A stretch of DNA of 64,000 nt from Rhynchopus sp. YZ270_cl-10. Taxonomy: Eukaryota. The notes under the pieces were generated by a model that was not told where the DNA came from, made no database searches, and saw only the letters and a list, made by a program, of their open reading frames with translations. This document shows positions 779-56,530 of the stretch, piece by piece (within the stretch, counting starts at the first letter, position 1; each line of letters opens with the position of its first letter). The stretch is from contig OZ037837.1 of the NCBI GenBank assembly GCA_964035575.1, positions 372,001 through 436,000 on the forward strand. Reading direction: 5' to 3'. The position numbers were made by a program, and so were the translations under genes.

Positions 779-3700
779 CTAATCCACACCCTCCATGAAC
801 GATACCCTACGGAGCGGCGCTCCTCTGCCTACGGGCGTTGTTTCCCTTCTTGCCACCACACCACCTCCACCACCACCTCCACTCCCACTAGCACTCCCCG
901 CATCACTCCTCCTCGGCGATGGCGGTGGGCTCACCCCCCCACCAGCACCATTTTCCGCATGCAGAAACGACGACGCAGCACTGCCACGCCGGACACGAGA
1001 CAGCCTCCGATCCTTGAACAGCTGAACACGGTCTGCTGCGGCTCGCCCCCTACCAACGTGCGGTGACAGGTCTGCGTACAGAGGCGTTAATACGCTGGTC
1101 GATTTGCCGCTAATGTCAGAGCCATGCAGAGAGAGGTCCGCTGCGTCCTCTTCGTATACTTGGTCATCGGGAGGGAGGAAGACGCTCAGCTCAGAGACGG
1201 AGGGGAAGAGGTGGGTGGAGGCGGGCAGTGCGGGGCTGAGGCCTGGCTTGCCGTCGCTGGAGCGTGGGCTGTTTCGTGTGCTGTGGCGTGGGCTGTTGTT
1301 GCATTCAATTTGCCAGGCCTCGTCGGAGGCAGCCCACTGTGCGTCCTGCAGGCGTGCCCTGCTGCGTGTGACAAAGACAACGCATTCGGTAAAGGCGTCC
1401 AGCACAGCCTTCCCCATCAGCACTGCAATCGCAATCCCAAACATCCCGTTCGCAAAGTCAAAGAACCACCCATCAGGGTCCTCCATATAGTACCCAGCTG
1501 AGGTAAGAAACAGCGCCACCGCCTGCAGCAGCAGAACAGCAGGGTCGATGATGTTGTCCCTGAAGCGGACGTGTGGTTTGAGGTACAGCTCGAGTGTGAA
1601 CATGATGAGGAATATGCACCCCCCCGCAAGACGCGCATGTCCGCACGCAACCATGTCCGGTGTCGCAAAGGCCTGTGTAGACGCAAGCGCAAAGCTTGCG
1701 GCAAACTCAATCACACTGAACCACACCGCCCCGGGACGGAAGCTGCGCATCACCGACGCGTAGCGGTACACCCAGTGGTATTCACGCTTCAGGCTCAGCC
1801 ACTCGCCACGCCCGGCAAAGTGTCGCCAGAACATTCCCCGGTGTGGGTCGACGTAGTACATGGCCACATTCCGCCCACCATCACTCAACGCACTGAAAAT
1901 TAGTGCAGGTGCAACCAGCGCGACAGTGACGGCCAAGACACCAAGCATCAAGTAGTCCACTTCGAAGAGAAGCATCAGACCCGCAAAGCTTGTGCCCTGG
2001 TACAGAACCTGGAAGGCAAAGAGCGGTATGGAAGGGAAGCGGATGACAGCAGCAACGTCCGATGCCATCTTGATGCAGTGGCCCGCCCTCTGCGCGCGTT
2101 TCGAGAAGAACAGAATAAGCCACCCCACCAGCGCCAGCACGAAGCAGATGGACAGGTTCCCCACGACGGCGCCTGCCGCAACAGACCCACCCAAGTGGAA
2201 GCGCAGGGGGTGCAGTGGCAGAGGCAGCTCCTTCTGCCCCGACAGCGTGCAGCGCTGCGAGACCAGCACCAGGCGTGTTGCCGCACCCGCGCTCGCACCC
2301 ATCGTCACCGTCGCAGCAATCGCAGCACCCTGCCCACCACCGCTGACCACAGGCGTGTCGGGTGTGTCGACCACGACACGTGCCGGTGCTGCTGTTTGGG
2401 GTGTTGCTGTCCCTCTTGCTGCCAGCAGTGGTGCTTCTGTCTCTGTTGCTGTCGCCGTCGCTGTCGCAGCTGCAGTTGCATCTGCAGCTGCAGTAGCAGT
2501 AGCAGGCTCTGTTGTGACGTCATCTACAGGTACAAGCGACGACAGCACAGACGGCGCAAACGTGCCCTGCACAGGCACCGTGCCTGGCACTGATGTTGCC
2601 CCTGCTGATGGCGCTGTTGTGTCCGGCACATCTGACGTGAACACTGGCACCTCTGTGTCACCTGGCACCGCCACTGGCGCCACAGTCTCTGGCACCTGCG
2701 TCGCTGGCACACTTGTGACTGGCGGGAGGGTCACTGGCGGAAGGGTGCGTGGCACAGGTGACGGTGGTGACAGTGTCGTGGGCACCTTCGTGGAAGGCGC
2801 AGGTGTACGTGGGGCTGCTGTTGCCGGCACATCTGTTGGCGGTGCAGGCGTGCGCGGGGCTGCTGTCGCTGGTACCTCTGTTAGCGGTGCAGGGGTAAGT
2901 GGAGCTGCTGTTGCTGGCGCATCTGTTGGCGGTACAGGTGTTGGGCCCTGCGTGGTTGGGGAAGGTGTCGGCTCTGCTGTGGGCGCTACGGTTGCAGGCG
3001 GATCCGTCAGTGGCGGGAGTGTTGCAGGTGGCAGTGTAGGCTCGGGGGTGGCAGGTGCCAAGGTGTCTGGAACTGTCGTAGGTGGCGCTAGTGTGGGCAC
3101 CAGTGTAGGTGGTGCAGGTGTCGGGGCAGCGGTGATGGGCATGTCCTCAAAGAACACGTACTTGAAGAACTGGATGCAGTCGCTCCCGTCGCAGTCACCA
3201 CGGAACATACCCGCAAGAAACGAGTTGTCAGGAACACTGCACATGCCGCCAGCCTGCATGCACTGACGCACGTCCAGGATGTGCGTGCCACCGCGCACCA
3301 GCCGCGTGGCACCAAAGTTAACAGGACAGCACTGTATCTGGATGAGTGCGTCCAGTGTGTCGTCCACACCGTTCCCCAGGTTCCTCCATCCCTTGATCAC
3401 GTGCTCGGGTGTCGTACACTGGATCCACTCCATGCGCTTCCCCTGAAACCCCTCCGCCCCTTTGTTCAGGAAATAGCAGCCCGCCTGCACGTTCACCTGG
3501 TCGAAGATCGGTGCCGCACAGTTCAAACGGCCTATTGAAGACAGCCCCGTCGAGGCAGGGTTGCGGTACATCCCAACCACTGCTTCGTGCGCAATGCAGT
3601 TGCAGCGCTCAGGTTCATCAATTGCAAAACACAAGCTTTTGTTTCTGTCGATGGGTGGTCCGTTCCACTGCGCAATCATCCCGGGGTCCACAGGGTCCGC

Positions 3701-4045
3701 AGTGATCGAGTACACAGAATACCGGTCACCAGCACCACAGAACTTCCCGACATCTGGGGCTGCACACGCCGTCGTGCACAGAGACGTATCCGGGTCCACA
3801 GCGCTCGTGCTCCCGAACGTGAACCCACACCAGCACTCCACTGCGAGTGTGCTCGCACCTGTCATCCCAATCACTGTGTACGGTGCGCCAGGTGTCGATG
3901 GATTACTGCAGTAGGCCGTGCAGTCTGTGGGGTTGTTCCCGAGGCCCTTCAGCACCATTTCGTTCCCAGCCGTTGTGAAGCACTCTTGTGCGTGCACCTG
4001 CAACATGCAAAGACACGCCGTTGCCAGCACGACACTGGCACGCAT
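779..4045 (-). CDS. Surface protein: signal peptide, WSC domain, Cys-rich three-repeat domain, Pro/Thr mucin stalk, multi-TM region (DGF-1 C-terminal-like), low-complexity tail
   Basis: 1088-aa ORF with hydrophobic N-terminus; WSC-type C..YC...ECWCG...CTTAC...CGAGDRYSVY; PAT/PPT stalk; about 8 hydrophobic segments after GGSVAAGAVVGN; paralogue at 39060-42260. Confidence 0.85.
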   Translation of the reverse strand: MRASVVLATACLCMLQVHAQECFTTAGNEMVLKGLGNNPTDCTAYCSNPSTPGAPYTVIGMTGASTLAVECWCGFTFGSTSAVDPDTSLCTTACAAPDVGKFCGAGDRYSVYSITADPVDPGMIAQWNGPPIDRNKSLCFAIDEPERCNCIAHEAVVGMYRNPASTGLSSIGRLNCAAPIFDQVNVQAGCYFLNKGAEGFQGKRMEWIQCTTPEHVIKGWRNLGNGVDDTLDALIQIQCCPVNFGATRLVRGGTHILDVRQCMQAGGMCSVPDNSFLAGMFRGDCDGSDCIQFFKYVFFEDMPITAAPTPAPPTLVPTLAPPTTVPDTLAPATPEPTLPPATLPPLTDPPATVAPTAEPTPSPTTQGPTPVPPTDAPATAAPLTPAPLTEVPATAAPRTPAPPTDVPATAAPRTPAPSTKVPTTLSPPSPVPRTLPPVTLPPVTSVPATQVPETVAPVAVPGDTEVPVFTSDVPDTTAPSAGATSVPGTVPVQGTFAPSVLSSLVPVDDVTTEPATATAAADATAAATATATATETEAPLLAARGTATPQTAAPARVVVDTPDTPVVSGGGQGAAIAATVTMGASAGAATRLVLVSQRCTLSGQKELPLPLHPLRFHLGGSVAAGAVVGNLSICFVLALVGWLILFFSKRAQRAGHCIKMASDVAAVIRFPSIPLFAFQVLYQGTSFAGLMLLFEVDYLMLGVLAVTVALVAPALIFSALSDGGRNVAMYYVDPHRGMFWRHFAGRGEWLSLKREYHWVYRYASVMRSFRPGAVWFSVIEFAASFALASTQAFATPDMVACGHARLAGGCIFLIMFTLELYLKPHVRFRDNIIDPAVLLLQAVALFLTSAGYYMEDPDGWFFDFANGMFGIAIAVLMGKAVLDAFTECVVFVTRSRARLQDAQWAASDEAWQIECNNSPRHSTRNSPRSSDGKPGLSPALPASTHLFPSVSELSVFLPPDDQVYEEDAADLSLHGSDISGKSTSVLTPLYADLSPHVGRGRAAADRVQLFKDRRLSRVRRGSAASSFLHAENGAGGGVSPPPSPRRSDAGSASGSGGGGGGGVVARRETTPVGRGAPLRRVSFMEGVD

Positions 4046-5436
4046 CCTGTCTGTGACCTTTTTGCAGTACCTTAGTGCTGGGCTCTCATGTTGTCAATTA
4101 TTGCTGAGGGTTGTGCAGGTGTGATGTGCGAGAGCGATAGTCTGGGGGTAAGTTCTCAGGATAACTGGAAAAAGGGCTTTTTTTTTTTTTTGAAAGAACT
4201 GAAAACAGCCAGAGTTCGTCAGGATTTACCTCCCTGCCCTGACCTCTGATGTACAATAAGCATACGTGCGCACCGACTGTTCCACCTTAAGCTGAAAAAC
4301 CACCGCATGTTTTATCTTGTTTGTTGCTTGTAAAAACAACAAATAAAAACACGATAAAAAGAAAACACTTGCAAGAAGAGCCGAAGCTTCTCTTTTATAG
4401 AAAAAGGGAACTGAAATTGCACCTTTTTTCTGGTTTCTTTCTTTTTTGAAAACTTGGTTGTATTAGTGTAGACACCCGAGGATGAACTCCACTAACTTTT
4501 CTGTTTTATTTAGCGTATTTTTCCTCGCGGATATAAGACAAAATAAAAGTAAACAAGTTGCCGAAAACCACAGCGATTTTGTAATTTGCAACAGCAACGA
4601 ACAAACGTGCAAAGAATAAAACATTTTTGTAAGATACACACATACCCCCTCTCTGTGTTTGTCTATCTTTAATACACAAAAGGTAATTGACTTTTTTTCG
4701 ATACTCTTTTTTATGCAGCGTTTAAAAGAAAAAGGAAAAATAAGTATTCCCGAGTACGCCTCAGCCACGCCCGAGCCAGAGGCCGACTCTGCTTCTGTTG
4801 TATTGTATGTATTACGGTGCACACTAACGCCTGGTCCGCCTAAGCCTCAGCCTGGTCCGCTAAGCATTGCAGGAGCAGGTAGTGTCCACCGTATCGGATC
4901 AAATGGCATCCATTGTGGGGGCGGACGAAGATTGAAACCGCACTCCTACTTTTCCTTTTTGTGTTTCCCCACCCCCAAAAACAATAAAACAATAAAGACA
5001 ATAAAGACAAAAGAGAGAGGTTGTGGTGAAACACACACACCTCGACCTGTCGGTGTGTGCGTTTCGTAAAAATTATGGTTGTGAAAAAAGGATGAATATA
5101 ATTACATCTTTTCCACAAGTGTACTGATCTTGTGGAGCTTCTTCGCACTCTGTTGCTGTTCAGCTAGTTTCCTTGTAAAAAAAAACGTGGGAGTGATGCC
5201 GAGCAAGAGTGGGGAGAAATTCAAAAACGTAAAAAAAAAAAAACCGTCTCACAAAAACTTACAGTTCATCGCTATATCACGGGTGTTGTCTTTATTGCGC
5301 GCGACTTGGGTGGACATTAGGTCCAACCTCATAACTAGACACACCCGTAGTATTTGTGACACACTGTATTTAACATTGAAGAAAAAAACCTACACCACCA
5401 CCAACTGCGAATCCATCCATCCTCCCCCTATATTGG

Positions 5437-8400
5437 TCAAACATGCTTCCCACCCTCACACCTATTCACATGCATCACACTATCCGGTACTCTACCCCCC
5501 AGCAGACAGCCCTCCTCCAACACTGAGACCGGGTCATCCGAAACAGCGAACAGCGTACCTGCCAGAGAAACTTCCAATGTAGGCCGCGTCACGAGCGTGG
5601 TAATCCGGGTGGCCATCCATGCACCAAGCGCCGCACCACGCGAAGCAACCGATAAACTTTGTCCAAGCGCCCTGGCTATGGTGTCCACATCACACCCCCC
5701 AGCCTTCACATGACCCGCAAAGAGCGAGCACAGAACGGTCTCGATACCGTCCACACTGTCCACTGTGATCTGCTCCAATTCGTACATCCACTCTGCAGCT
5801 GCCTGAGAAGCCTTCTTTACCTCCAGCACGACCTCGGTGCACATCGGCTCCCCCCTCCCACCACACCCCACCACATCCGCAAAGGGCGCATGAATGAAAT
5901 ACGATGACAACGACTTAAAACTTTGAAGCGTCGTCGTAGATACCAGCACCGGAGCTCCTGAGGACTGCGCAACCCTCGCAAGCACTTCCGCATCCTGCAC
6001 GACACCACCTAAGATATGAAACGTCCTCCCCGCCGTGGGGCCCAATAAACACACATTAGAAGTGGCAGACGCGACTCCACAGTGATACCCGACATTACCT
6101 AAGGTGGAGGCTGCGCGAAGTGCACTGAAAATGGCGGCTGAAAATGGGATACTCCCAACGGCACCCCAGGTTGCAATGAAACTGCTTTCGGTGACCCGGT
6201 GGACGCAGCCGCGGAGTGCCTCTACTTCGCGATAACAATGCGCAAGAAGTTCGGAGAAAACCCCGGCACCCCCGTCTGTCGTTACGACCGAGGCAGGACC
6301 AAGGGAGGCACGTACAGTAAGGGCAACGACTTTGCGGTAGCCGTTCATTTCATTGCTTAAATCGAGCGGCTGTGCGATGGAGGATCCCGCAGTGGAGGCT
6401 GTATCGCTTTGGGTATTGAGGTATCCCTGTCTCTGCCTCGGGCTGTGTTGAGGAGACCGAGATGCCGCAGCTGACGACAAATTACTGTTCTTCCTTCGGC
6501 GAGGGGAGCGAAGCGATGCCACGGAGGACGACACATTGCTGTTCTTCCGCTGTTGGATTCGGAGCTGAACCTCCTGGACCGTCGGGTCTTCTGCAGCAAA
6601 GTCGGGGAGGTTGTCCTTCTCACCGTTGTACCCCGCTCCTTTGCGTTCCCCTAGGGTTTGCAGCACTGCGGAAGGGAGATACGGCGTGAACTGCGCCAAA
6701 TTCTTCAATAAATCGCGAAACGCCAGAATCAGCGACTGTGGAAGCCCCGAATCCTGCCGCCCCTCTGCAGAACTGAGCAGCCTCTCAGCCTCTTCAGTAT
6801 CCAGCGCGACCAACGATGCGGCAATATCCTCCGCAAGCTCAATGTACTCTCGCACATCCTCCCCTTCTATATGCCCAATATAAAACTGCTTCATCTGCTG
6901 CATTGCTGCTGTAGAATGCGCTACAGTAAAAAACGCTTCTGTTGCATCCCCACCAAGACGTGACGCAATGGCCGCTTCTCCACCAGGATGGCGTGAAGGG
7001 AAGATGCCAAGATCGTACACTTTGCCCTCAAGGATAAGCCACGGATCTGCTAAAGTAGTGTGCGCGGAAACCTCCGCTAGGGTGTAGAGTGGTGTGGATG
7101 AGCACGGTTTGACGTCGTGATTGGAACGTTCTTGGAGTGTTTTGCTTCGTTGTTTTGTTGCTTCAAGGATGATGGTAAGAAGTACGCCAGAGATGGAGAT
7201 GGTGTAAAAGAAAGTGGAGACATCAGAGCAGTCGTCCTTTTCACATAGTTTCCGTAAGGTTTTTATTCCGGTAGCGCATTGCGCCACGACGCACAGAAGT
7301 GTCGCCGCCCCACAGCCCCGATGGATCAACCCGCGGATCCTCACGAAGCATTTCCCGACCCTCCGGAACACACCCAGCAACACCGTAGTAGAAAAAAAGC
7401 CGATGGTGGTATACCCCATCACTTTGTGCCCGGTTTTTGTGGTAATTCCAGAAGACGGTTCCTTAAATGCAAGCACGATACCTACTGCCATAAAGGTTCC
7501 CCCCAGTACAGCACAGACGATGTGAATGATAAAGCCTGGACCAAACGGATATATTGATGAGTTGGATATACGGAAGACAGGTTTTGAGTAGCGCTTTGCC
7601 AACACTGCGAGAATCATACTCGCAAGCGAGGCAATCATGAAGAAGGCATGACGTCGACGATGCAGATGCACATCACTTCTTTTCCCTGCCTCAGAATCCC
7701 CACTGATGAGGTTGACCGTCAACGCAACATTCTGCGAAGGCGCATGCTGTGCTAGCTCCAACGACTCCATATCCCGCGCGATAATTATTGCAATTTCATT
7801 TTCATTTAATCCCGTTAAATTCAATCTAAAATGCACCACCCTACGCCCATTATTCACCTCATAAAGGAAATTGTCAAACTCAGAAAGCACAGCAGGACGC
7901 ACTCCGGAAAGACTTCGCTCTGTGATCCGATATGATACTGTACCAACCGAAGACGATATCACAGCACGCCCAGGGGACATCGTATTTGGACTATCCGGAA
8001 ACCCGACCCCAAGCCAGCCCTGCCCCATCTCATCAACAAGCGCTAGGTCCGCTGCAACCAGAGAGGGCTGGTAGCTCCAATGGAGTGATACCCCTTGCAG
8101 CGCTGTCTCGACCCGACAGGAGTACGATACATTGTCGTTTTGAAGCGTGGAGGGTGCGCACCGCTGTGACTGCTGGGGAGAAAAGGGGCAGTCCGCATCC
8201 TCGGCAGAGTACTGAGGTAACCCATTCTGGACCAACTCCGCCCAGGCTAGGGTATATGCTTCTAGAAAGGCGCTGTTATTGCGTGCAAAGGTTTCGACAA
8301 CACTGCGGGTTTGTTCGTTATGAAGCAAAGCAAGATCGCTCGAGAGAACCGTTAACCCATGCGAAGTGAAGACAATATCCCCTGAGGTGTTTTTGTACTT

Positions 8401-9171
8401 GGTCCAGACCATGTTGAGAAGGTTCTGATAATATGTGTTGTCGAAGACGTCTGGGTCTGCTGTGAACATCCCTTCTGCACCTGAGTTGGCAAAGTACATT
8501 CCACCCAAAGCATGCCCGCCCATAGCCGCCACCACCTTCGAAATGAATCCGTCGGAGTAGCGACCATCTGATATCGTTGTGTCCTCCGACGCAAAATAAT
8601 TCGCAAATTTATGAAAAACGACGTCAAGCATAAGCGGAAAGGCGTCACTATCGTTAGCAACATTCTTCGGGGGAAGCCGGTTTGGCGCGCATTTTTGGGT
8701 CGATTCATGAAAATCGCGTCTACCTGGCGTGAAAGGGAGTTCATTCGAACCGCGAGATTCGTGCACAATGGCGGCAACAATTTGTGTCATATCCGCAAAG
8801 CTGACAAAGGGGAAGGTGGCGACCAGGGTTGCGATGTAAGAAATCGCCTTCGAGAGCCCGGCGTTCGCTCCGTCGAAGCGCTCGGGTGCCATTCGTATAC
8901 ATCCTCCGTTGGTTCCACCGGGGGGTTTGACAGCAGCGTTGAACGTCCCAGCGCTGTGCCACGCCAGCCGCACAAAGGTCGCACCCTGCACGTCATGCAC
9001 ATCACGGAAGTACGTCTCCAGCCGCCCACGCACACCCACCACAACCGGGGCGTACCTTGCAACGCACATCTCACGGTGTGCGGTGTTCGCCACTTCCGCA
9101 CATAGTTCCACTGCAGTGACGGCAACACAAAGCGAAAGGCACACTACACACACAACGCGAAGGGACAGCAT
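5437..9171 (-). CDS. Fusion: class I heme peroxidase (APX/CCP-like), DOMON, cytochrome b561, cytochrome b5, degenerate cyclase-like domain
   Basis: First ATG at 9171 gives signal peptide MLSLRVVCVVCLSLCVAVTA; RLAWHSAGT, SFAD, PGRRD, GGHALG, FDNTYY, SDLALL (peroxidase); WLGVGF..TM..QH (DOMON); four His in TM helices (b561); WLILEGKVYDL..HPGG..GGDATEAF..HS (b5). Confidence 0.88.
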   Translation of the reverse strand: MLSLRVVCVVCLSLCVAVTAVELCAEVANTAHREMCVARYAPVVVGVRGRLETYFRDVHDVQGATFVRLAWHSAGTFNAAVKPPGGTNGGCIRMAPERFDGANAGLSKAISYIATLVATFPFVSFADMTQIVAAIVHESRGSNELPFTPGRRDFHESTQKCAPNRLPPKNVANDSDAFPLMLDVVFHKFANYFASEDTTISDGRYSDGFISKVVAAMGGHALGGMYFANSGAEGMFTADPDVFDNTYYQNLLNMVWTKYKNTSGDIVFTSHGLTVLSSDLALLHNEQTRSVVETFARNNSAFLEAYTLAWAELVQNGLPQYSAEDADCPFSPQQSQRCAPSTLQNDNVSYSCRVETALQGVSLHWSYQPSLVAADLALVDEMGQGWLGVGFPDSPNTMSPGRAVISSSVGTVSYRITERSLSGVRPAVLSEFDNFLYEVNNGRRVVHFRLNLTGLNENEIAIIIARDMESLELAQHAPSQNVALTVNLISGDSEAGKRSDVHLHRRRHAFFMIASLASMILAVLAKRYSKPVFRISNSSIYPFGPGFIIHIVCAVLGGTFMAVGIVLAFKEPSSGITTKTGHKVMGYTTIGFFSTTVLLGVFRRVGKCFVRIRGLIHRGCGAATLLCVVAQCATGIKTLRKLCEKDDCSDVSTFFYTISISGVLLTIILEATKQRSKTLQERSNHDVKPCSSTPLYTLAEVSAHTTLADPWLILEGKVYDLGIFPSRHPGGEAAIASRLGGDATEAFFTVAHSTAAMQQMKQFYIGHIEGEDVREYIELAEDIAASLVALDTEEAERLLSSAEGRQDSGLPQSLILAFRDLLKNLAQFTPYLPSAVLQTLGERKGAGYNGEKDNLPDFAAEDPTVQEVQLRIQQRKNSNVSSSVASLRSPRRRKNSNLSSAAASRSPQHSPRQRQGYLNTQSDTASTAGSSIAQPLDLSNEMNGYRKVVALTVRASLGPASVVTTDGGAGVFSELLAHCYREVEALRGCVHRVTESSFIATWGAVGSIPFSAAIFSALRAASTLGNVGYHCGVASATSNVCLLGPTAGRTFHILGGVVQDAEVLARVAQSSGAPVLVSTTTLQSFKSLSSYFIHAPFADVVGCGGRGEPMCTEVVLEVKKASQAAAEWMYELEQITVDSVDGIETVLCSLFAGHVKAGGCDVDTIARALGQSLSVASRGAALGAWMATRITTLVTRPTLEVSLAGTLFAVSDDPVSVLEEGCLLGGRVPDSVMHVNRCEGGKHV

Positions 9172-11295
9172 AGCAGGGGTGTAGGGGTGGAGAGCAGGAG
9201 GGTGGGGGTAAAGAATTATCTGTGGGAGGTGTAAATGTAGTGTGAACAACGTTGTCGGGGGCTAACAAAGGTAACGACTACGGCACGCTGTGGGACACCA
9301 GAGACGGAGGAGGCGAGTGACAGTGCAGAACACGAAGAAGAACAGGCAGATAAATAGGCAACAACGAGGAAGAAGTCGCCGGCGACGGAGCAGAACAAGA
9401 AGACCGCGCCGGAGCAACCGTTCTTACTTTTCCTCTTGATGTTTCCCCCCCCCCCACTCCCGCAAACAATAAAGCAATAACAATGAATACAAAAAGGAGA
9501 GGTATGGTGGAACGCACACACCTCGACCTGTCGGTGAAATGTGGCTCTACTCCAACCCGCCCCGGTTTAAGAAATAGAAAAAGGAGGGGAGTAGGGGTAC
9601 GGTGCTCAATTTCCTTTTAGCATTACATGGAGTCATAAAATAATTTTTTTTGTCTAAAAAACCTTACACAGTCTTCGCTAAAGAGATGTGCGTCTCCCTA
9701 CCCACCCACACAAACCCGCAGATATTTTATAATAAGTCACAGGAGGGTGTCTAAAAAGGTCAAAAATGGAAAAAATGGAAAAAAAGGTAGAAAAATTTGG
9801 GGTGTTTTTGACCAAAAAAAGAGTGAGGGGAGTTGGGTCCAGTCATAGGGGAGTAGAGCAATTTTTAAAAAATTCTACCAAAAATGCACAGCATTTTTCA
9901 AGCACATAGGCAGATTTTCGCTTTTTTATAAAAAATTGAGGAAACCGAAATATCCCACCGTAGCTGTCTTCCTCAGAGGTCGGAGCCCAAAATAGGCCGT
10001 TCTTCCTGCGGAAAGTAGTGCGTACACTGTCCATATCTTCGAAGATGAACTGTTTCGGCTCGCAGAACACCTCAAATTACTTGCAGCTTGCGAGTCTCCG
10101 TGTTGTTGAAGGGTGGGGCGTAGAGGGAGAAGGCAGCGATCACATTGAGCGGAGGGCGTCGAAAAATCTATGTATCTATGTGTCTATGTGAGCCGCGCGA
10201 CTGTTCACGATGCCAGTGAAGAAGTCTTTCGGGAATCCTTGCCGGAAGGGCGTACGACCGTGGGTGAGACACCTGAGGAGTATTGGAGCACCCTCCGCTT
10301 GATGGCAGACGGCGTATGTCCTGGCGCAGACGCTTGGGGCTCACACACCCTCGGTGCTACAGGATCTTGAGGGTTTGACGCACTGTTGGCTGCGTGCTCG
10401 GTGGGTCACAAGAAGAGGTTGAAGCTTGTAGACACCAGCACCGGCACGAGTCAAGTCACAAAGAGCTAAGGAGAACTGACGTGCGGTGGGGAAGGCCCCC
10501 TCCGACCGTCCGGACTTGGCGGTCTGCACCCCCATCCTCGTCAAGAATTGGCTAGAGCACATGGCACCCAGAGCAGTGACCGGTCCGACGCTCGCATGTG
10601 AGCGTCGCTCCTCCGGAAGCTGGTAGTGGCCCAAGTCCACACGGACTAGAGGCCGCCGATGGGCAGGAAACTGCAGGAGGGCATGCCACAAGGGCTAACG
10701 AAACCATGGTAATGGGCCTATGTGGGGTTACAGACGTGTATATGGTGTAACCACAGATGCTCAAAACACCCGATTTTTACGTTTTTTTGCATTTTTCGGT
10801 GCCCCAAGACCCACCCCAGGGGGCCAAAAAATTTTCGAAAAAAAAATTTTTTTTTTCAGATTTTGCTAAGGTAAAATGTGACTGTGAAAACGATCCTCAA
10901 AATAGAGGATCCTCAAAATTCCCGTTTTTCCCTTTTTTCCCCTTTCCCCTTAGTCATTTTTCCCGTTGCCTTGTCGAAAAAAAATTTTTTGGGTCAAAAA
11001 AAAAAAGTGAAAAATTTTCGCAAATTTCGATCCTACGACCACCCACAGGTGACGAAAACTCCGTTTTCGTGAAAAAAAAAATTTTTTTTTTGGGTCAAAC
11101 ACGGCCTTGCCTAGCCACTTTTGGGTATAGTATAGGCTTGTTCAGAGACGTGTATATGGTGTAACCACAGATGGTCAAAACAGCCGATTTTTGCGTTTTT
11201 TGGCATTTTTCGGTGCCCCAAGACCCACCCCAGGGGGCCAAAAATTTTTCGAAAAAAAAAATTTTTTTCACCTGAAAACAGGGTTCTAGCTCAGA

Positions 11296-14656: not shown

Positions 14657-15218
14657 ATAAACGTTTTTAAAAATAGGATGGAACACCCCGTTCCGAAGAG
14701 GAATGCAGCCACCCCGAAAAAGTGGGGGTGTGTCGCCAGTCTGCGGTGAGAAACTCCTCCCTGAGTCAAAACTGCCGCTGGTTACCCACCCCCACAATTA
14801 GCCGACCAGCAGCCTAATTATGAGGATGGCACCACGTGTACACCATCGTTATCGAAACACCAGACGCGTCTGATTCACGTCGTGGTGACCCTTCTTGCAG
14901 CAGTTCGCCGGCGAAGCAATCATCGGGCGTCCGTCACGGTTCTTCTTCTTCCTCTCACTGGCCACACAAATATCGCAAGCTCCTCTGTCATGTCCTCTGC
15001 AGTTGTGGTGCTTGCCACAGCACTGCTTCGCCGTCATCGGTGTCGCTGCCCCCGCACACTGCCCGCACGCAGACATACTGTGCTGTTCACACGAGTCTAG
15101 TGCCTCATCGCATGTCTCCAAAATGTTCGCATCGCAGTGGTGTATCGCACAACAGTTGTTGATGTTGTTGCGGTTGAGGGTGCAGTCCTCGCATCGCAAC
15201 CTACTGTGTGTGACGCAC
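14657..15218 (-). mobile_element. Fragment of insertion element (long form) with a Cys/His-repeat ORF end
   Basis: Abuts the same host site as 16083-16703; shares 127 bp (14658-14784 = 16085-16211); encodes three CxxHxxxxCxxC..CCxx(x)HH units ending at 14849. Confidence 0.65.
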
Positions 15219-16992
15219 TCAAGTCTTGTCAATGCGCTGCAGTCCTTCAGGAAGTGGTTCCCGATGTGCGTAACGTTGTCCCACCCTGACACGTCAACTG
15301 TGGTCAATGCGTTGTGGTGGCAGATAAACGAGGATCCGAGCTGCGTAACGTTGGTCCACCCAGATAAGTCAACTGTGGTTAGCGCGGAGCACTCGGACAA
15401 GAAGCTGTTCCCGATGTGTGTGACATTCCTCCACCCGGATAAGTCAAGCCTTCTCAATGCACCGCAGTCATTCAGGAACGAGCATCCTATCTGCGTGACA
15501 CTGGTCCACCCAGATAAGTCAAGTCCTGTCAATGTGCTACAGCCCTTCAGGAAGTGGTTCCCGATGTGCGTCACATTGCTCCACCCAGTCAAGTCAAGTC
15601 TGGTCAATGCGCAGTCCTTCAGGAAGAAGCTGGCTATGTGCGTCACATTGCTCCACCCACGCAAGTCAACTGTAGTTAATGCTCTATGGCGGCTGAGAAA
15701 CGAGGATCCGATCTGCGTAACGTTGTCCCACCCAGATAAGTCAAGTGTGGTCAAAGCGGTGCAGCCACTCACGAAGCAGTTTTCAATGTGCGTCACGTTG
15801 CTCCACCCAGATAAGTCAAGTGTCGTCAATGACATGCAGTTGCCGAGAAAGCAATTCCCAACATGTGTAACATTGCTCCACCCAGATAAATCAACAGTGT
15901 GCAGTGAGGTGGATTCGTAGAGAAAGCTGCTGCCTATTGCAGTCACACCTGACACACCACTGAGATTAAGTTCTTCGAACGTACTACCTTGCAAGAATCT
16001 ATTGGGGATCTCGGTAACAACTTCCGCCTGCAGAAACAAATGAATCAGATTGGGATCTTCCAGACCTTCGAACCTCTCTGTCCCTAAACGTTTTTAAAAA
16101 TAGGATGGAACACCCCGTTCCGAAGAGGAATGCAGCCACCCCGAAAAAGTGGGGGTGTGTCGCCAGTCTGCGGTGAGAAACTCCTCCCTGAGTCAAAACT
16201 GCCGCTGGTTAGCGCTGGCTAAGGTTCCCTTTTCACCCGGTCACAGTCGAGTCTCGCTCCGTCGGCGTTGACTGCACTGCAAAGCCCCTTGGTCCACCGT
16301 CGTAAAAAGACACCACAAAAAGCGTAGGTAGGTGGGGGACCGGCAGGTTACAGACAGAGGCAGTACGGAGCTAAGGTGTCGGCGGTCGCGGGTTTCCGTG
16401 GAGGCCTGCCCCCCGTGGAGGTCTTGGGATCTGGAGTTTTGTGGGAGTGATCGGCTTAGAGTACCCTGCATAGTTCATGCTTACATGGTGTACTCGGATC
16501 CTGATCCATAATTGCGGTAGGATATTGGGGTCCCGGGAAGCACCCTTCGCACCGAGGTCCCACCACCCCAGACAGTTTATAGGTCTAAAAGCACAACGTA
16601 CTTGTCCAGGACCTGGCCGCTCTTGGGTTCTCTCAAAAAAAGATACTAATCCCGTACGCCCGTGCACCGCAAAAATGTGCTATGGGGGGCGGTCCGCCGT
16701 CGGGACCTTCGAACCTCTCTGTCGTCAGCCTTGTCTCACCCAAGTCACGAAGAGCTGCAATGGCGTCGTCCTTCTGCGACTTCCTCTTCGTCAGCACAAC
16801 TGTGTCCCCAGCACTCAGCTGCGTGATGTAGTCTCCTTCTGCCATCACCTTCCCACCAAAGCTAACGTCGAAGCCGTCTTCGCACAACTCTGCTGCAGAC
16901 GCCACCTTCCGCCGTATGTCCGCAGTTGTATCATCCACACCCACATCGACTGTGTACTTCTCTCCGTCAAAGCTCTCCACACATATTTCCAT
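15219..16992 (-). pseudogene. Ubl-LRR paralogue B, interrupted by a 621-bp insertion and lacking its native C-terminus
   Basis: MEICVESFDGEKY Ubl domain (ATG 16992) and 25-aa LRRs match paralogue C; split at 16083-16703; LRRs run in frame into foreign sequence at about 15219. Confidence 0.8.
16083..16703. mobile_element. 621-bp insertion element with 20-bp target-site duplication and no TIRs
   Basis: GACCTTCGAACCTCTCTGTC at 16063-16082 and 16704-16723; single copy of this site in the intact paralogue (about 22994-23013). Confidence 0.85.
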
Positions 16993-21404: not shown

Positions 21405-23282
21405 TCACGTGCACACACATTGACACTTGGTATTGTCCATGATGTTACGGCCATGCACACAGTCTGACACAACACTGCTCGATCCGGTGATGTTGATGCT
21501 TCTTGTACGTATTTTGCATCCTTCGAGGAAGCCTGGCCCGATCACCGTCACACTGCTCCACCCAGACACGTCAAGCCTTGTCAATGCGCTGCAGTCCATC
21601 AGGAAGCAGCTGCCGATGTGCGTAACGTTGTCCCACCCAGACAAGTCAAGTGTTGTCAACGCGGTGCAGCCAATCAAAAAGTGGTTCTCGATGTGCGTCA
21701 CATTGTTCCACCCAGAGAAGTCAACTGTGGTCAATGCTCTGTGGCGGCAGATAAACGAGGATCCGATGTGCGTAACATTGTTCCACCCAGATAAGTCAAC
21801 TGTGGTTAGCGCGTGGCAGTTGTCCAAAAAGCAGTTCTCAATGTGCGTCACACTGCTCCACCCAGATAAGTCAAGTGTGGTCAATGAGCTGCAGTTCCAG
21901 AGGAACCAGGATCCTATCTGCGTGACATTGCTCCACCCACGTACGTCAAGTGTGGTCAATGCCTCGCCGTCCTTCAGGAAGTAGTTCCCGATGTGCGTCA
22001 CATTGTTCCACCCAGACAAGTCAAGTGTGGTCAATGCCGTGCAGCCCTGCAGGAAGTAGTGCCCGATGTGCGTCACACTGCTCCACCCAGACAAGTCAAC
22101 TGTGGTCAATAACACGTGGTTGCAGAGAAACGAGGGTCCTATCTGCGTGACACCGTTCCATCCACGCAAGTCAACTGTGGTCAGCGGGGTTGTCGACCCG
22201 ACGCCGTTCCCGATGCAGCTGTTCTCGCTCGTGCTCCACGCCGCCAATATGTTTGCGGATAAGAAGTAGTCATCAATCAGCGTCATACTGCACCACCCAG
22301 ATAAGCTAAGCCTTCTCACTCTGCAGTTCCAGAGGAACCATTTTCCTATCTGCGTGACATTGCTCCACCCACGCAAGTCAAGTCCTATCAACGCGGTGCA
22401 GCCCTCGAGGAATAAGCTCCCGATGTGCGTCACATTGTTCCACCCAGATAAGTCAAGTGTCGTCAATGTTCTGCAGTGGCGCAGGAACGAGGGTCCTATC
22501 TGCGTGACATTGGTCCACCCAGATAAGTCAAGGGTTGTCAACCATGTGCAGCTTCCGAGGAAGCAGCTCTTGATGTGCGTCACACTGCTCCACCCAGATA
22601 AGTCAAGTGTGGTGAATATACACTCCGTCAGGAAGTAGCTCTCGATGTGCGTCACATTGTTCCACCCAGAAAGTTTAAGTGTTGGCAAGCGCGTGCCCAC
22701 GAGGAAGTGGTCGCCGATTTGCGTCACGTTGTCCCACCCAGAAATGTCAAGCGTTCGCAATCCATCGCATTTGCCGAGAAAGCGGCTCCCAACATGTGTA
22801 ACATTGCTCCACCCAGATAAATCAACAGTGTGCAGTGAGGTGGATTCGTAGAGAAAGCTGCTGCCTATTGCAGTCACACCTGACACACCACTGAGATTAA
22901 GTTCTTCGAACATGCGACCTTGCAAGAATCCATAGGGGATCTCGGTAACAACTTCCGCCTGCAGAAACAAACGAACCAGATTGGGATCTTCCAGACCTTC
23001 GAACCTCTCTGTCGTCAGCCTTGTCTCGCCCAAGTCACAAAGAGCTGCAATGGCGTCGTCCTTCTGCGACTTCCTCTTCGTCAGCACAACTGTGTCCCCA
23101 GCACTCAGCTGCGTGATGCCGTCTCCTTCTGCCATCACCTTCCCACCAAAGCTCATATCGAAGCCGTCTTCGCACAACTCTGCTGCAGACGCCACCTTCC
23201 ACCGTATGACCGCAGTTGTATCATCCACACCCACCTCGACTGTGTACTTCTCTCCGTCAAAGCTCTCCACACATATTTCCAT
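21405..23282 (-). CDS. Ubiquitin-like domain plus BspA-like 25-aa leucine-rich repeat protein (intact paralogue C)
   Basis: ATG 23282; Ubl-like MEICVESFDGEKYTVEV..IRWKV..LSAGDTVVL; about 19 LTTLDLSGWxNVTHIGxxFLxxC repeats; ends CQCVCT. Confidence 0.88.
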   Translation of the reverse strand: MEICVESFDGEKYTVEVGVDDTTAVIRWKVASAAELCEDGFDMSFGGKVMAEGDGITQLSAGDTVVLTKRKSQKDDAIAALCDLGETRLTTERFEGLEDPNLVRLFLQAEVVTEIPYGFLQGRMFEELNLSGVSGVTAIGSSFLYESTSLHTVDLSGWSNVTHVGSRFLGKCDGLRTLDISGWDNVTQIGDHFLVGTRLPTLKLSGWNNVTHIESYFLTECIFTTLDLSGWSSVTHIKSCFLGSCTWLTTLDLSGWTNVTQIGPSFLRHCRTLTTLDLSGWNNVTHIGSLFLEGCTALIGLDLRGWSNVTQIGKWFLWNCRVRRLSLSGWCSMTLIDDYFLSANILAAWSTSENSCIGNGVGSTTPLTTVDLRGWNGVTQIGPSFLCNHVLLTTVDLSGWSSVTHIGHYFLQGCTALTTLDLSGWNNVTHIGNYFLKDGEALTTLDVRGWSNVTQIGSWFLWNCSSLTTLDLSGWSSVTHIENCFLDNCHALTTVDLSGWNNVTHIGSSFICRHRALTTVDFSGWNNVTHIENHFLIGCTALTTLDLSGWDNVTHIGSCFLMDCSALTRLDVSGWSSVTVIGPGFLEGCKIRTRSINITGSSSVVSDCVHGRNIMDNTKCQCVCT

Positions 23283-24385
23283 AGTTTTGTGTCTCTCTGT
23301 TCTGTGCAGGTGTTTTGGGTGCGGCTGCTGCTGACTTGTACCAGTAGTGGTCAGGTTTTGCACAAGACAGACACATCAAGGAGAACTTCGTAGTGAAAGG
23401 GGTGGTGTGGTGTGCAAGAGACAACGAACAGGTACAAGGGGAGAGGTCTTTTGTTTTTGTTTCTGAAAGCTTCGTTGTGTGCACACCGCACTCCGACTTT
23501 TCCTCTTTGTGTTCCCCCCCACCCCCAAAGCAACAGACCATAAAGACAAACGGGAGAGGTTGTGGTGAAACACACACATATGTCATGTCATCAATCCTAC
23601 AACAAAGCGACAAGAAGCCGTGCATGATTTTGCATTCTTTTATCTCAATCGTGATATGAACTCTCTTCACATTTTGCGGATTTGACCGTAAAAGCTCGTG
23701 ACCTAATCGAAGCTTTACGTCACGACGTCAACGTTATGTTACCATGTGGGACAGTGGGCTCGTGACGCAAACCAATATTGCATGACATAAAGTACCCCTT
23801 CCTCAGAACATTCGTTTTTACAGGAAAATCTGCAAAATGCAGCTCGTTTATGTCCTCATGAGATAAACATCGTATTGCATTCTGAAAAGCGCACTTCACA
23901 TAACTCGGGAGCTACGCATATTATTTGGTGCCCTTGTGCACCAAAAATTTCAACTCGGAACCATAGCCCCCTCGTGATGTAAAGTGCACTTTACATCATG
24001 CAATAAATAGTTTAAAATGCGTGTTCAGAGAGAAATTGGTGGAGGGGAGAGGAGGGGTTGTGTTCAGGGAACAATTGGGTACGTTGAAAAAATAAAATGG
24101 GGACACATGCAAAAGAAAGGAGGACAGCTCACTCCTGAACGAGTTTACACACACATAAACAGGGGAGGGGAAGTTGTGACTTAAATGCCGCCGAAGGCTT
24201 TTTTATCGACATAAAATCCTTACAGTATGGTGCACAGCCAGCACGTGGAACGGAGGGGAAGAGAGAGAGAGCGAAAGAGGGAATGTCTAGTAACAGATGC
24301 ACACAAAGCCCAGCAAAAGCTGATTGGGCGACTGTTGCTGACTGGACATTCCTCAGTCCCTCTTAAACCAACACGGATCCTTAAA
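23014..24385. repeat. Segmental duplication of Ubl-LRR 5' end and upstream region (second copy about 16724-18003)
   Basis: Collinear near-identical blocks with indels, e.g. 17712-18003 versus 24095-24386. Confidence 0.85.
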
Positions 24386-25333: not shown

Positions 25334-27643
25334 TCACAGCTCTACCACCGTCTTCTGGACCGCCCCCGATGTTCCGGTCTCGCCCTCCTGGTTGCCCCCT
25401 ACCACGAAGGTGTACTGCGACGGCGACACAAACACACGTGTCCCGTCGTCCATCGCAACCTTCATCGGATCGCTCCTCACCTCCAATACCACTGTCCGCG
25501 ACTGGCCCACTGAAAGGAAAACCTTTTGGAACGCTACGAAGTTGTGCTTCGGCACCACGACACCCTGCACCTGCGGGACAGAGGTATACACCTGAACGAC
25601 ATCTGCCCCTGCCCTGCTCCCTGTGTTGGTGACGGTGACAACAACTTTCGCAGCATAGGGACTGGCCGCCCCTTCGACTGTCAGGTTCGAGTACGCAAAA
25701 GAAGTGTAGGAGAGCCCAAACCCAAAACCGTGCTTCACGTAGTTCGGGTCGACGTATCTGTGGGTCCGTCCGTAGCCGAGGTTGAGGTCGAAATGGGCGA
25801 TGGAGGTGGAGTAGTTTACGTTCATAAAATCGGACCAGCCCTGCGTGTAGAAGGTTAGGGGCAGCTTCGCAGAAGGGTTCACATCCCCGAAGAGCACGTC
25901 CGCAACACCCGATCCCGCCTCCTCCCCGCCGTAGGGTGAGTAGATCACCGCGTCTGCAGCGTCTTCGTCGAGGTCCACCCCGCCCCCGCTTACGCAAATG
26001 ACAACCAACTTCTTCGCAACCGCCTGCACAGCCTCCAACAACGCCATCTGCACCCCAGGAAGCGTCATGTTCAGTCTATCCAAGCCTTCAGACTCCACCA
26101 AATTCCCCAACCCCACCACCAACACAACCAAATCCGATTTTGCAGCCACCGCAACCGATGCTTGAATCGCAACGTACTCCGGGGACGTCACATTGTTCCA
26201 ACATTCGGAATCAATAATGCCACACGTTGTGTTGCTCCCCAAGCTGTACACACTGTTCGTACGGTTAGAGATTCCTTCGTAAAAAGTGGAGTATTTTGAG
26301 GGCAGCCCGTTGTAGCTTTGCAGCAGGCATTCGGTACAGTTTGCAAACGGACCGATCACGGCGGTTACGGAGGTGGTCGAGGCGGTGAGGGGGAGGATGG
26401 CGTTTTTGTTTTTCAGAAGCACCGTCGTGGAAGAGGCGGATTCGCGAGCAAGCGCACGGTGCTGTGGAGAATCGAGGAGGTCCCATGGTGTAGAGGCATT
26501 TGTAAAGGGAAAATCGTCGGAGTGGCTGTCGAAGAGACCGAGTTTCATCTGGGATTTCACGATTCTTGCTGCGGCAGAGTCGAGCTGCGCCATCTGGAGA
26601 GAACCATTCGAGAGCAACACCTCAAATGCAGGAAGCAGGGAGTTCGCGCTGAATCCATAGTACACCTGCACCCCGGTTTCGACCCCGAGCTGCAGCGCTT
26701 CTGAGTCGGTCGTGATGCCGTTGTAGTGAAAAGGGTCGTTCATCGTGCGAATCGCATCACAACAGTCAGTCTGGACCAACGCATCCGACTCCCACACCTC
26801 ACGGAGCAATGTGGTGAGGAGGTATGGGTTCCCGCAGGAGGGGACGCCGTTGACAGAGGTCATTGCGCACATCATGCCGTCTGCGTTGCCGACAGAGGGC
26901 TTCTGGTAGGCGGCGTAGATCGGCAGATAGGAGTCAGCGAGGGATCGGTTGGTGACGTTCATGATGGCGTGGAAGGGCCCGAGGTCTGGGCGTGCGGAGT
27001 GGTACCCCAAGAAGTTGCATGTCGTGAGCCGCATGGCCATGAAGTGGTCGCCAGGGGAGTGTGGAACCTCCTGCTGGTTTTGCATGGAGCGTATAGCGGC
27101 CACACCGATCTCCTGCAGCAGGTATGGGTCCTCGCCGTAGGTCTCAGAGATACGCCCCCAACGGGGGTCGTGCGCAGAGTTTGCATGCGGCCCTCCGTCG
27201 CACGACAGTACCGACGCCTGCGACGCGCCGTTGGAGGAGGTGTACTTCTTCCAGGAGAGGATGCGGGCTTCGATGGCAGTAGCGTTCCCTACGCGGTAGA
27301 CGAGGTCCGGGTCGAAGGAGGCTCCTAAGGCAATGGCGTGGGCGAATACTGTGACGCCGGTTTCCTTGTTGAGTCCGTGGATGCAAGTGTGGTCCAAACT
27401 CCAGGATTTTACATTAAACCTCTCAACAGGAGTACTAGAAGGGTAGCTATGCCCCCACAGGTCAAGCTTCTCGCTCAGGTTGAGGCGTGATACCAAATCT
27501 ACGGAGCGGGCTTGGAAGCCGAGGGTGCGGTTGCAGAAAGGGAGGGAGGCCTCGGGGGAGCCGGGGGCGCAAGTGAATTGTGTCGAGATCTCTGCATGAA
27601 CGTGGTTCAGCAGGGATAAGAACAAAACGCTTGAACGGAGCAT
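25334..27643 (-). CDS. Secreted glycoside hydrolase family 3 (beta-xylosidase/glucosidase-like) with C-terminal Fn3-like domain
   Basis: ATG 27643 with signal peptide; LPFCNRTL, DPRWGRISETYGEDP, NGVPSC, TDC nucleophile, VLLKN, ESEGLDR, FGFGLSYTSF, VTNTG..VVQVY. Confidence 0.92.
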   Translation of the reverse strand: MLRSSVLFLSLLNHVHAEISTQFTCAPGSPEASLPFCNRTLGFQARSVDLVSRLNLSEKLDLWGHSYPSSTPVERFNVKSWSLDHTCIHGLNKETGVTVFAHAIALGASFDPDLVYRVGNATAIEARILSWKKYTSSNGASQASVLSCDGGPHANSAHDPRWGRISETYGEDPYLLQEIGVAAIRSMQNQQEVPHSPGDHFMAMRLTTCNFLGYHSARPDLGPFHAIMNVTNRSLADSYLPIYAAYQKPSVGNADGMMCAMTSVNGVPSCGNPYLLTTLLREVWESDALVQTDCCDAIRTMNDPFHYNGITTDSEALQLGVETGVQVYYGFSANSLLPAFEVLLSNGSLQMAQLDSAAARIVKSQMKLGLFDSHSDDFPFTNASTPWDLLDSPQHRALARESASSTTVLLKNKNAILPLTASTTSVTAVIGPFANCTECLLQSYNGLPSKYSTFYEGISNRTNSVYSLGSNTTCGIIDSECWNNVTSPEYVAIQASVAVAAKSDLVVLVVGLGNLVESEGLDRLNMTLPGVQMALLEAVQAVAKKLVVICVSGGGVDLDEDAADAVIYSPYGGEEAGSGVADVLFGDVNPSAKLPLTFYTQGWSDFMNVNYSTSIAHFDLNLGYGRTHRYVDPNYVKHGFGFGLSYTSFAYSNLTVEGAASPYAAKVVVTVTNTGSRAGADVVQVYTSVPQVQGVVVPKHNFVAFQKVFLSVGQSRTVVLEVRSDPMKVAMDDGTRVFVSPSQYTFVVGGNQEGETGTSGAVQKTVVEL

Positions 27644-28364
27644 CGTAGAGTGTGTACGCAACCTGTAGGTTGGGGGGGTCACAATGGAGGGGTGCAAGGG
27701 TGTAAATAAGCCGACTCACGACTCCCGACTCCCGGACCCCCAGACCTTATTTACACCCTTGGGGGGGTGGGGGTGGGTGAACTGAAGGCATTGGGTGTGA
27801 TGGAAACTGTGGGAGTGGGGGTCCTTGTTTGTGGGGTTCCAGAGAAAGTAACGGGGTACACATGAGAAATTATTACGCATCCACTTGCCGTTTAGATAAA
27901 GAAAAACAGAGACGAAAGGGGGGAAGAGTTTAACGAACGCATCCCCACACTCAGTCACACAAAATTTGACAATTTTCCTGATGTGTATGCAAGGTGTGTG
28001 AGTGAGCACGGGAGGGGAAAAAACGACTCGTGGTTAGAAATGCACGCATGTCTTGTAACAATATTACGCTCAACAGGGTTAAGGCGCCAAGAGACGTCAC
28101 GCCAACATTTTGCATTTAAATGTCGGTTGTGACTCTAAGTCACCTTTTGTGTAATAAATGGAGGAGAGCGAAGAGATGCACCGGTGAAAGGGTTTGGCAC
28201 AGATTGCATTCGTCTTGGAAAAGACGAAGGGTTTTTGGGCTCTCGCAGTGGTGGATGAGGTGCAGTTACTGCTGTGCCAACGCCGTATCTTCTCTTGTTA
28301 GTGCTCCTCTTGCTTCTTTCGGTTTTTCCTGTGGAGAAGATGAAACCAAGGCATTCCGCAGTTC

Positions 28365-56290: not shown

Positions 56291-56379
56291 GTTGTGTGTT
56301 TCGAAGAGGTGGGAGGGTGCAGGGGTGTCTGGAAGGGGTTGGGTGTGCATGGATGAAAATAGTGTGGGAAAAAAAGACT

Positions 56380-56530
56380 GCGTGACATTGTTCCACCGCA
56401 GACACATCAATGGTTTGCCAAGGTGTTGCAGTGGTCGAGGAAGGACTCCTCCATCTGCACGACATTGCTCCACCAGACATAAAGGGCAGTCGACGCGCTG
56501 CAGTAAACAACGAAGCCATGAATGTGCGTG
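56380..56530 (-). pseudogene. Degenerate LRR fragment of the Ubl-LRR type
   Basis: Frameshifted CSA..WSNVVQMEESFLDHC..WNNVTQ remnants upstream of the B-box gene. Confidence 0.55.

Follow-up and report, generated by a model that had tools for sequence, protein, structure and literature searches.

A diplonemid protein chain joining a peroxidase, a predicted DOMON-b561-b5 heme wire and a cyclase-fold tail as a candidate oxidant receptor

The stretch of DNA analysed here, hereafter the window, comprises 64,000 nucleotides of Rhynchopus sp. YZ270_cl-10 (assembly GCA_964035575.1, contig OZ037837.1, positions 372,001 to 436,000 of the forward strand). At 9171..5437 on the minus strand it contains an open reading frame (ORF) that runs from an ATG at 9171 to a stop at 5437 and encodes a protein of 1244 amino acids, P0001. 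The ORF is intronless, being uninterrupted by stop codons and requiring no splicing, and all long ORFs with Pfam domains across the window are likewise on the minus strand and without introns. From the N-terminus, P0001 is composed of a signal peptide, a peroxidase, a DOMON domain, a cytochrome b561, a cytochrome b5, a helical linker and a class III cyclase-fold tail. An earlier note, made from the DNA letters alone, had given the same order of domains, which is borne out by Pfam, the relatives and the family alignment. Its domain bounds were broadly right, with the peroxidase now mended to 9108-8218 and the DOMON to 8160-7696, and its list of domains is confirmed except that it overlooked the conserved helical linker directly after the b5 (6864-6667). 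The features are as follows, with residues of P0001 and the supporting evidence in brackets.

5437..9171, minus strand: single ORF P0001, 1244 aa (ORF call, identical public contigs)
9112..9171, minus strand: predicted signal peptide, residues 1-20 (hydropathy peak at 6-24; similar N-termini among relatives)
8218..9108, minus strand: class I-type heme peroxidase, residues 22-318 (Pfam, PDB alignment to cytochrome c peroxidase, family columns)
7696..8160, minus strand: DOMON, residues 338-492 (Pfam weak here, stronger in relatives; ligand columns)
7156..7674, minus strand: cytochrome b561 core and fifth transmembrane helix, residues 500-672 (four His columns, Pfam, hydropathy of relatives)
6865..7089, minus strand: cytochrome b5, residues 695-769 (Pfam; both His columns)
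6667..6864, minus strand: helical linker ending in PYLP, residues 770-835 (phmmer against the transmembrane cyclases of the window)
6352..6666, minus strand: Ser/Arg-rich low-complexity spacer, residues 836-940 (sequence; tail comparison)
5842..6339, minus strand: pseudo-cyclase of class III fold without catalytic residues, residues 945-1110 (AlphaFold2 and fold searches, HHalign)
5440..5841, minus strand: EWMYEL motif (residue 1127) and C-terminal helices (tail comparison, AlphaFold2 model)

Contigs of the public runs X1 and X2 cover 5022/5026-8803 and 8779-9539/9481 with 0 differences from the window in the ORF region; the source sample may be among these runs, and their agreement therefore verifies the sequence and not its spread. 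A mis-assembly or read-through artefact was rejected on the basis of these identical contigs together with full-length transcripts in relatives.

The first relatives to be found were P0002 (58% identical, with the architecture of P0001), P0003 and P0004, the last two with an added adenylate cyclase; P0004 is from a Rhynchopus humris transcriptome. Word-indexed homolog searches, restricted to lengths of 684-2177/2653, left the greater part of the family undetected, returning 4, 3 (followed by catalase-peroxidases) and 2 members. From a HMMER search with residues 334-820 we took the best 150 of 7393 hits, all of which were scanned with hidden Markov models (HMMs) of the family domains and 32 of which were scanned with Pfam. 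Of these 150 matches, 118 share only the b5. The full-core family comprises at least 29 proteins, 26 from the best 150 of 7393 hits plus P0002, P0004 and P0005. Family members are 22-35% identical to the query, and in them the core of DOMON, b561, b5, linker and cyclase is constant while the outer module varies.

Sources were looked up for 24 proteins. The 12 full-core members with a named source are all diplonemids, of seven species: Rhynchopus humris, Diplonema papillatum, D. japonicum, Lacrimia lanifica, Artemidia motanka, Namystynia karyoxenos and ‘Hpha’, which we read as Hemistasia phaeocysticola. Two diplonemid families are thereby represented, Diplonemidae by Rhynchopus and Hemistasiidae by Artemidia, and a relative without the tail is from Flectonema neradi. 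No non-diplonemid member was seen among the looked-up proteins, which do not include P0142, P0139, P0151, P0172 and P0220. The D. papillatum member, KAJ9456028.1, is annotated just as ‘Adenylate cyclase’ and was not found in the part of the P. papillatum proteomics supplements that was covered (PMC12697944). Because 11 of the 12 named full-core members come from transcriptome assemblies, in which the full chain lies on single transcripts, the chain is one mRNA at the family level, and the objection that it might be split into separate mRNAs is answered for the family, not for the P0001 gene itself. P0003 and P0005 are paralogues on one contig of 2,860,802 bases, and a frameshifted or truncated copy, P0006, was noted as well.

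In the peroxidase, Pfam (PF00141) matches residues 50-298 (E = 2e-24; 87 bits against a cut-off of 27), and a PDB alignment to yeast cytochrome c peroxidase (CcP) shows that the catalytic residues R68, W71, H72 and N103, the proximal H220 and D279 are kept. The Cys pairs 24/36 and 91/161 are conserved in the family columns. Catalase-peroxidase is ruled out by the full two-domain KatG model, which scores 48 bits against a cut-off of 770. In CcP, Trp191 is the radical site, and Met230 and Met231 have roles as well. F236 of P0001 aligns to Trp191, and T274 and V275 take the places of the two methionines, so the donor residues of CcP are absent. N229 aligns to CcP Asn184, a position that we take to be that of the ascorbate-binding Arg172 of ascorbate peroxidase (APX); judged through the CcP alignment, this arginine is absent too. 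The earlier note had named ascorbate or cytochrome c as the donors of class I peroxidases, and from these residues neither is likely to serve P0001, while the Phe at the Trp191 position and the Asn at the APX ascorbate position fit a donor within the chain. The same Phe and the conserved Cys pairs also resemble those of secreted peroxidases. This likeness would suit a peroxidase that oxidises outside donors (phenols, halides or prey compounds) apart from the heme wire, which would then only rescue inactive states or be vestigial, and the analysis yielded no structural evidence for the path from the DOMON heme to the peroxidase heme. A complex prediction of the peroxidase with the DOMON-b561 unit and four hemes, in which the alignment was not used, scored 0.14 against a mark of 0.34 and so speaks neither for nor against such a path. 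However, almost no member has lost a wire ligand and the fusion is kept in both sampled diplonemid families, and we consider such uncoupled modules very improbable.

Independent origins of the distal-Trp and distal-Phe peroxidase types were considered and are unsupported, as the two types form two clades, possibly sisters, in a FastTree tree. In a metagenome scan, 13 loci matched the peroxidase, and none of the 13 matched the DOMON, b561, b5, linker or cyclase.

The DOMON of P0001 is weak by itself (Pfam E = 0.2 on the excised region, under the cut-off), and the same region in the relatives P0127 and P0137 is matched by Pfam to E = 1e-5; its predicted heme ligands are M398 and H476. The b561 of P0001 is also under the Pfam cut-off (E = 0.005), with the homologous region of P0139 reaching E = 1e-9. 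Its transmembrane (TM) histidines are H508, H550, H582 and H617, with a basic R527 at H1+19 (H1+20 in most relatives). In the core alignment the four b561 histidines are present in 35 of 35 aligned proteins; of the DOMON ligands, the His is found in 28 of 29 proteins and the Met in 27 of the 28 sequences that cover the DOMON. Pairing of hemes by H1/H3 and H2/H4 and Met/His ligation of the DOMON heme were assigned after the available parts of PMC10691727 and PMC10784544. The cytosolic ascorbate site of Arabidopsis HYP1 has R307, and at the corresponding position, H4-7, the aligned proteins have Arg in 23 of 35 and Lys in 3 of 35.

Hydropathy indicates a signal peptide and three TM segments in P0001 and five TM segments each in P0003, P0004 and P0005, counts that depend on the threshold chosen by the analyst. 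The HYP1 model likewise has five TM helices, and in this plant CYBDOM protein electrons move outward through the DOMON-b561 unit (PMC10784544). Five TM helices would place the b5 and the tail in the cytosol. An AlphaFold2 prediction of residues 1-1200 from the single sequence had a mean predicted local distance difference test (pLDDT) score of 38.9 and was not used.

The b5 is matched by Pfam Cyt-b5 at residues 697-768 (E = 2e-17; 63 bits against a cut-off of 23.7), and its ligands, H728 in an HPGG motif and H752 in an HS motif, are both present in 29 of 29 proteins of the core alignment. By sequence comparison P0001 thus has all ten expected heme-iron ligands along with the peroxidase catalytic residues. 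The heme ligands and the topology given in the earlier note hold, and its idea of a five-heme relay stands as a prediction, with ligand residues in place for every presumed heme. As a separate observation, P0124, P0126, P0133 and others contain 5-11 tandem cytochrome b5 domains, one of them fused to a Rab-GAP TBC domain.

The helical linker that follows the b5 is homologous to the segment between the TM helices and the cyclase in the two ordinary cyclases of the window (phmmer E = 1.7e-9), which suggests that it is a generic input element of cyclases. Its PYLP end sits where, by comparison with the position given in PMC5995499, the cyclase transducer element of class III cyclases lies, and the linker may be such an element. 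In 28 of 29 proteins 43 residues separate b5 His752 from linker Ala795 (44 in the remaining one), whereas the distance from b561 H4 to b5 His728 ranges over 103-117 and so varies by 14 residues. This indicates that the b5 is locked to the linker and only loosely tethered to the membrane part.

In the tail, an AlphaFold2 model of residues 935-1244 built from a 29-row alignment has a mean pLDDT of 61, rising to 80-93 in the core blocks (model residues 41-150). The model matches class III cyclases (VIA Z 13.7, root-mean-square deviation 3.2 Å over 132 aligned residues, 3r5g); every one of VIA rows 1-24 is a class III cyclase-type chain, and the best Foldseek match is CyaC (E = 6e-5). All six catalytic residues of cyclases (Asp, Asp, Lys, Asp/Thr, Asn and Arg) are absent, the corresponding blocks reading VVALTV, HRVTES and VVQDAEV. 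Hence the cyclase-like tail of the earlier note has the fold without the catalytic residues, and P0001 itself is not a cyclic AMP (cAMP) producer. In 16 of the 29 family members, a set picked by the FTD motif, the full adenylate cyclase signature D-K-D-D-N-R is present in a GRESAG4-like domain, which is followed by a second, degenerate domain; the nearest PDB entries to the catalytic domain are GRESAG4.3/4.1 (E = 7e-28). The spacer at residues 836-940 of P0001 occupies the place of this active domain. When a profile of nine pseudo-cyclase tails was run against 18 second domains, it matched every one (E = 1e-13 to 8e-4, with 0.057 as the best value from 360 shuffles); by sequence it matched none of 18 catalytic domains. 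HHalign gave 97.9% for the nine-tail profile against the second domain of catalytic members. Shallow profiles had not been significant in these comparisons, and significance was reached only after more relatives were added.

Between P0001 and P0002, identity is 55/66 (83%) in the linker, 126/166 (76%) in the pseudo-cyclase and 53/75 (71%) in the b5, compared with 70/153 (46%) in the DOMON and 86/169 (51%) in the b561, indicating that the dead tail is conserved. The EWMY motif of P0001 is absent from catalytic members, so a swap of outputs fits as well as a simple deletion of the catalytic domain. Tails with the pseudo-cyclase only stand at six places in the core tree (quick IQ-TREE, SH-aLRT support only), suggesting that this output was gained more than once, by separate origin or by swapping. 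The spacer also contains, at residues 873-905 (about 6550-6450 of the window), a duplicated RKNSN-x-SS motif and several RRxS/SP sites, which are possibly phosphorylation sites.

The outer modules of the 29 members are a peroxidase in 15, desulfoferrodoxin/superoxide reductase (SOR)-type arrays in six, extra DOMONs in two, none in two, and truncated or other in four. Among the peroxidase members, P0168 has four copies, another is N-truncated, and the distal His is kept in 13 of the 14 members that are not truncated. The SOR-type arrays have 4-10 repeats per protein, up to 10 in P0155, and are recognised by Pfam/TIGR00332 matches and a weak PDB match to 1y07 (E = 2e-5). Superoxide reductase holds its iron in a His4Cys site; a ligand-like pattern of His, His-His and CxxH, sought with a rough regular expression, occurs in 16 of 39 repeats. 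In the core tree P0001 clusters with eight other distal-Trp peroxidase members (support 92), and SOR-type inputs are found in two separate parts, which suggests, with moderate support, that inputs were exchanged. In P0155, P0135, P0137, P0128, P0151 and P0172, the secreted tandem SOR-type arrays sit on eukaryotic membrane proteins, with short Cys-containing helical spacers between the domains.

These outer modules might also be seen in terms of metal. Characterised CYBDOM proteins are ferric or cupric reductases (PMC10784544, PMC10691727, in the parts available), the SOR-type repeats are iron-binding folds, many with their ligands lost, and members with DOMONs only or without an outer enzyme exist. 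The family could accordingly be a CYBDOM-type ferric reductase and sensor, in which the outer domains handle iron, the cyclase reports iron or other acceptors, and the peroxidase only guards against Fenton chemistry. In the largest group, however, 15 of 29 including P0001, the catalytic peroxidase residues are kept, and such a peroxidase would compete with Fe(III) for electrons, so that we regard this explanation as improbable.

Which of its neighbours the b5 goes with was seen from co-occurrence. Of the best 150 matches, 32 have the family b561; 26 of these have the b5, the linker and the cyclase fold, six have none of the three and none is mixed, a count that was favoured by a query holding the b5 and most of the linker and by domain HMMs built from the hits. 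This points to the b5 as part of the signalling output rather than of the reductase. The protein might instead be a trans-membrane scavenger of reactive oxygen species (ROS), in which cytosolic reductant feeds a surface peroxidase or SOR array against oxidants of prey, host or seawater. The wire would then not drive the cyclase module, which would ride along as a passenger or act back on the wire as a regulator. For scavenging, the electron chain and the catalytic residues suffice by themselves, the multiplication of outer enzymes, to four peroxidases in P0168 and as many as 10 SOR-type repeats in P0155, suits capacity, and the full cyclase signature is missing in 13 of 29. Yet an outer enzyme with DOMON and b561, with or without b5, and no cyclase-fold tail occurs in none of the best 150 matches, the six tail-less relatives among them having DOMON repeats only, and when P0001 is compared with P0002 no part is better conserved than the linker and pseudo-cyclase. 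We consider scavenging unlikely, albeit the strongest of the rival readings.

On balance we lean toward P0001 being a redox or oxidant receptor, with H2O2 on the outer side draining electrons from a five-heme wire until the cytosolic b5 is oxidised and the cyclase module is thereby switched. The exchangeable outer modules would be electron acceptors for reactive oxygen (peroxidase in 15 of 29, SOR-type in 6 of 29), in support of this reading, and the conservation of ligands despite 22-35% identity appears to count for a heme-wire receptor. H2O2, outside the cell or in a lumen depending on where the protein is located, would oxidise the peroxidase heme, which would draw electrons through the DOMON and the two b561 hemes and finally from the b5. 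The potentials rise in the order b5 < b561 < DOMON < compound I, so outward electron flow would be downhill. The oxidised b5 would then shift the attached linker and so switch the cyclase module. In the 16 catalytic members of 29, cAMP would be changed directly; in P0001 the output would be indirect, and our guess is that the protein pairs with an active cyclase or uses its conserved pseudo-cyclase/EWMY tail to bind a partner. The wire could regain electrons either from NADH-cytochrome b5 reductase, at the b5, or from ascorbate, at the b561 heme on the cytosolic side; a cytosolic reductase of the former kind, DIPPA_03351, is listed for P. papillatum in the available part of the PMC12697944 supplement. 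Members with SOR-type arrays would respond to superoxide, and DOMON-only members to other outside electron acceptors. The H2O2 receptor that the earlier note had raised as a possibility is thus better supported, by the cyclase behind the b5 and linker in 16 of 29 members and by SOR-type domains in place of the peroxidase, with the qualification that P0001 lacks an active cyclase.

Several observations weigh against this receptor reading. The shape of cytochrome b5 hardly changes on oxidation, making the coupling of b5 to output the weakest step. The HYP1-type ascorbate position is Val610 in P0001, with Arg611 adjacent. At the outer end, the peroxidase member P0165 lacks the distal His, the full ligand pattern is missing in 23 of 39 SOR-type repeats, and P0127 and P0171 seem complete yet have no outer enzyme; ROS therefore cannot be the sole input. 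At the inner end, four of 29 members have a degenerate first cyclase domain and nine, including P0001, have a low-complexity spacer and then the pseudo-cyclase alone (with the EWMY motif in eight of the nine), which leaves 13 of 29 from which no cAMP is expected. In addition, ordinary TM cyclases have the same linker and cyclase module, and supplement rows of PMC10161547 show gain or expansion of cyclase orthogroups in diplonemids, which together suggest that the module may fuse promiscuously. Extended to the whole family, the proposal would be that of diplonemid ‘electron-wire receptors’, in which exchangeable oxidant-reducing enzymes drain the DOMON-b561-b5 wire, an adenylate cyclase on the same chain is gated by whether the b5 is reduced or oxidised, and what crosses the membrane as the signal is an electron rather than a change of conformation; we hold this generalisation tentatively, with doubt slightly outweighing belief.

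Each domain of P0001 belongs to a known family, while the whole is not an APX, a CcP, a receptor-type adenylate cyclase or a DUOX and extends CYBDOM at both ends. It is like the CYBDOM proteins (Arabidopsis HYP1/CRR, animal SDR2/FRRS1, Drosophila CG8399) in its signal peptide, Met/His DOMON, four-His b561 and the five TM helices of the HYP1 model, and electron flow in CYBDOM proteins is outward (PMC10784544, PMC10691727). The portions of these descriptions that were compared give no outer peroxidase or SOR, fused cytosolic b5 or cyclase, and present ascorbate-fed metal reductases and not receptors. The trypanosomatid receptor-type adenylate cyclases (GRESAG4/ESAG4) share the plan of an outer domain, a membrane part and a class III cyclase. 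In the available part of PMC4534343 they have a single TM segment and unknown ligands, in contrast to the five predicted TM segments and heme chain here, and P0001 lacks their catalytic domain. Leishmania HemAC-Lm is likewise a euglenozoan cyclase under the control of a heme domain (PMC4534343). HemAC-Lm is soluble and its globin heme binds O2, whereas the b5 heme here is predicted to be bis-His and at the end of a trans-membrane wire. An outer peroxidase-like or DOMON domain is also fused to a trans-membrane di-heme carrier in DUOX and in DOMON-containing members of the ferric reductase (FRD) superfamily (PMC3591440, in part). DUOX, however, has an animal-type peroxidase (PF03098), an FRD membrane domain and FAD/NADPH domains, makes ROS and has no cyclase; in P0001, Pfam gave no match to an FRD TM, FAD-binding or NADPH-binding domain at E up to 0.1. 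The Euglenozoa-specific heme peroxidases (eHPX; Skodova-Sverakova 2020, PMC7237987) include APX/CcP-related diplonemid peroxidases of unknown function, several predicted to be secretory and C-truncated; the 30 of 36 eHPX places covered all list 0-1 TM segments, and the text covered describes no fusion.

The available text of PMC10161547 mentions neither cyclase nor DOMON, and in its supplements CYBDOM and adenylate cyclases appear just as orthogroup rows. Literature searches, which left most subscription papers uncovered, found no description of an outer peroxidase or SOR joined to DOMON-b561-b5-cyclase, nor of a single-chain five-heme peroxide reductase across a membrane. It is in this architecture that the novelty lies, and we infer the receptor mechanism from it. 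The ligands of euglenozoan receptor cyclases are posed as an open question in PMC4534343 (Box 1). In the present family the substrates of the outer enzymes are known and the hemes leading to the cyclase can be identified one by one, which makes the input predictable and testable. If the mechanism is true, ligands could be named for a set of these cyclases, and the family would offer a modular, genetically encoded ROS-to-cAMP converter and, in abundant marine protists, a receptor principle apart from ligand-binding or cysteine-oxidation sensors; a eukaryotic membrane protein would also carry SOR-type domains on its outer side.

Other features of the window were noted as well. Two near-identical TM adenylate cyclases (43236-45317 and 47500-49584, minus strand), the ordinary cyclases mentioned above, have the full catalytic signature, the shared helical linker and a second degenerate cyclase domain. 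Paralogous secreted proteins at 779-4045 and 39060-42260 (minus strand) have a weak WSC domain, a Pro/Thr-rich stalk and a multi-TM C-terminus. BspA-type leucine-rich-repeat genes lie at 14849-16093, 21405-23375 and 54599-56689 (minus strand), one with an N-terminal ubiquitin-like domain, and a GH3 glycosidase and a large WD40 protein at 25334-27715 and 28365-33584 (minus strand). Finally, a short intergenic element of ~55 bases occurs upstream of genes at 5000-5055, 9505-9563 and 23535-23578, with two exact 20-base copies and a third partial copy in the window. Its summed contig depth is several hundred times that of the ORF (~90,000 versus 111 in run X1), and it is possibly a high-copy repeat or an RNA-processing signal.

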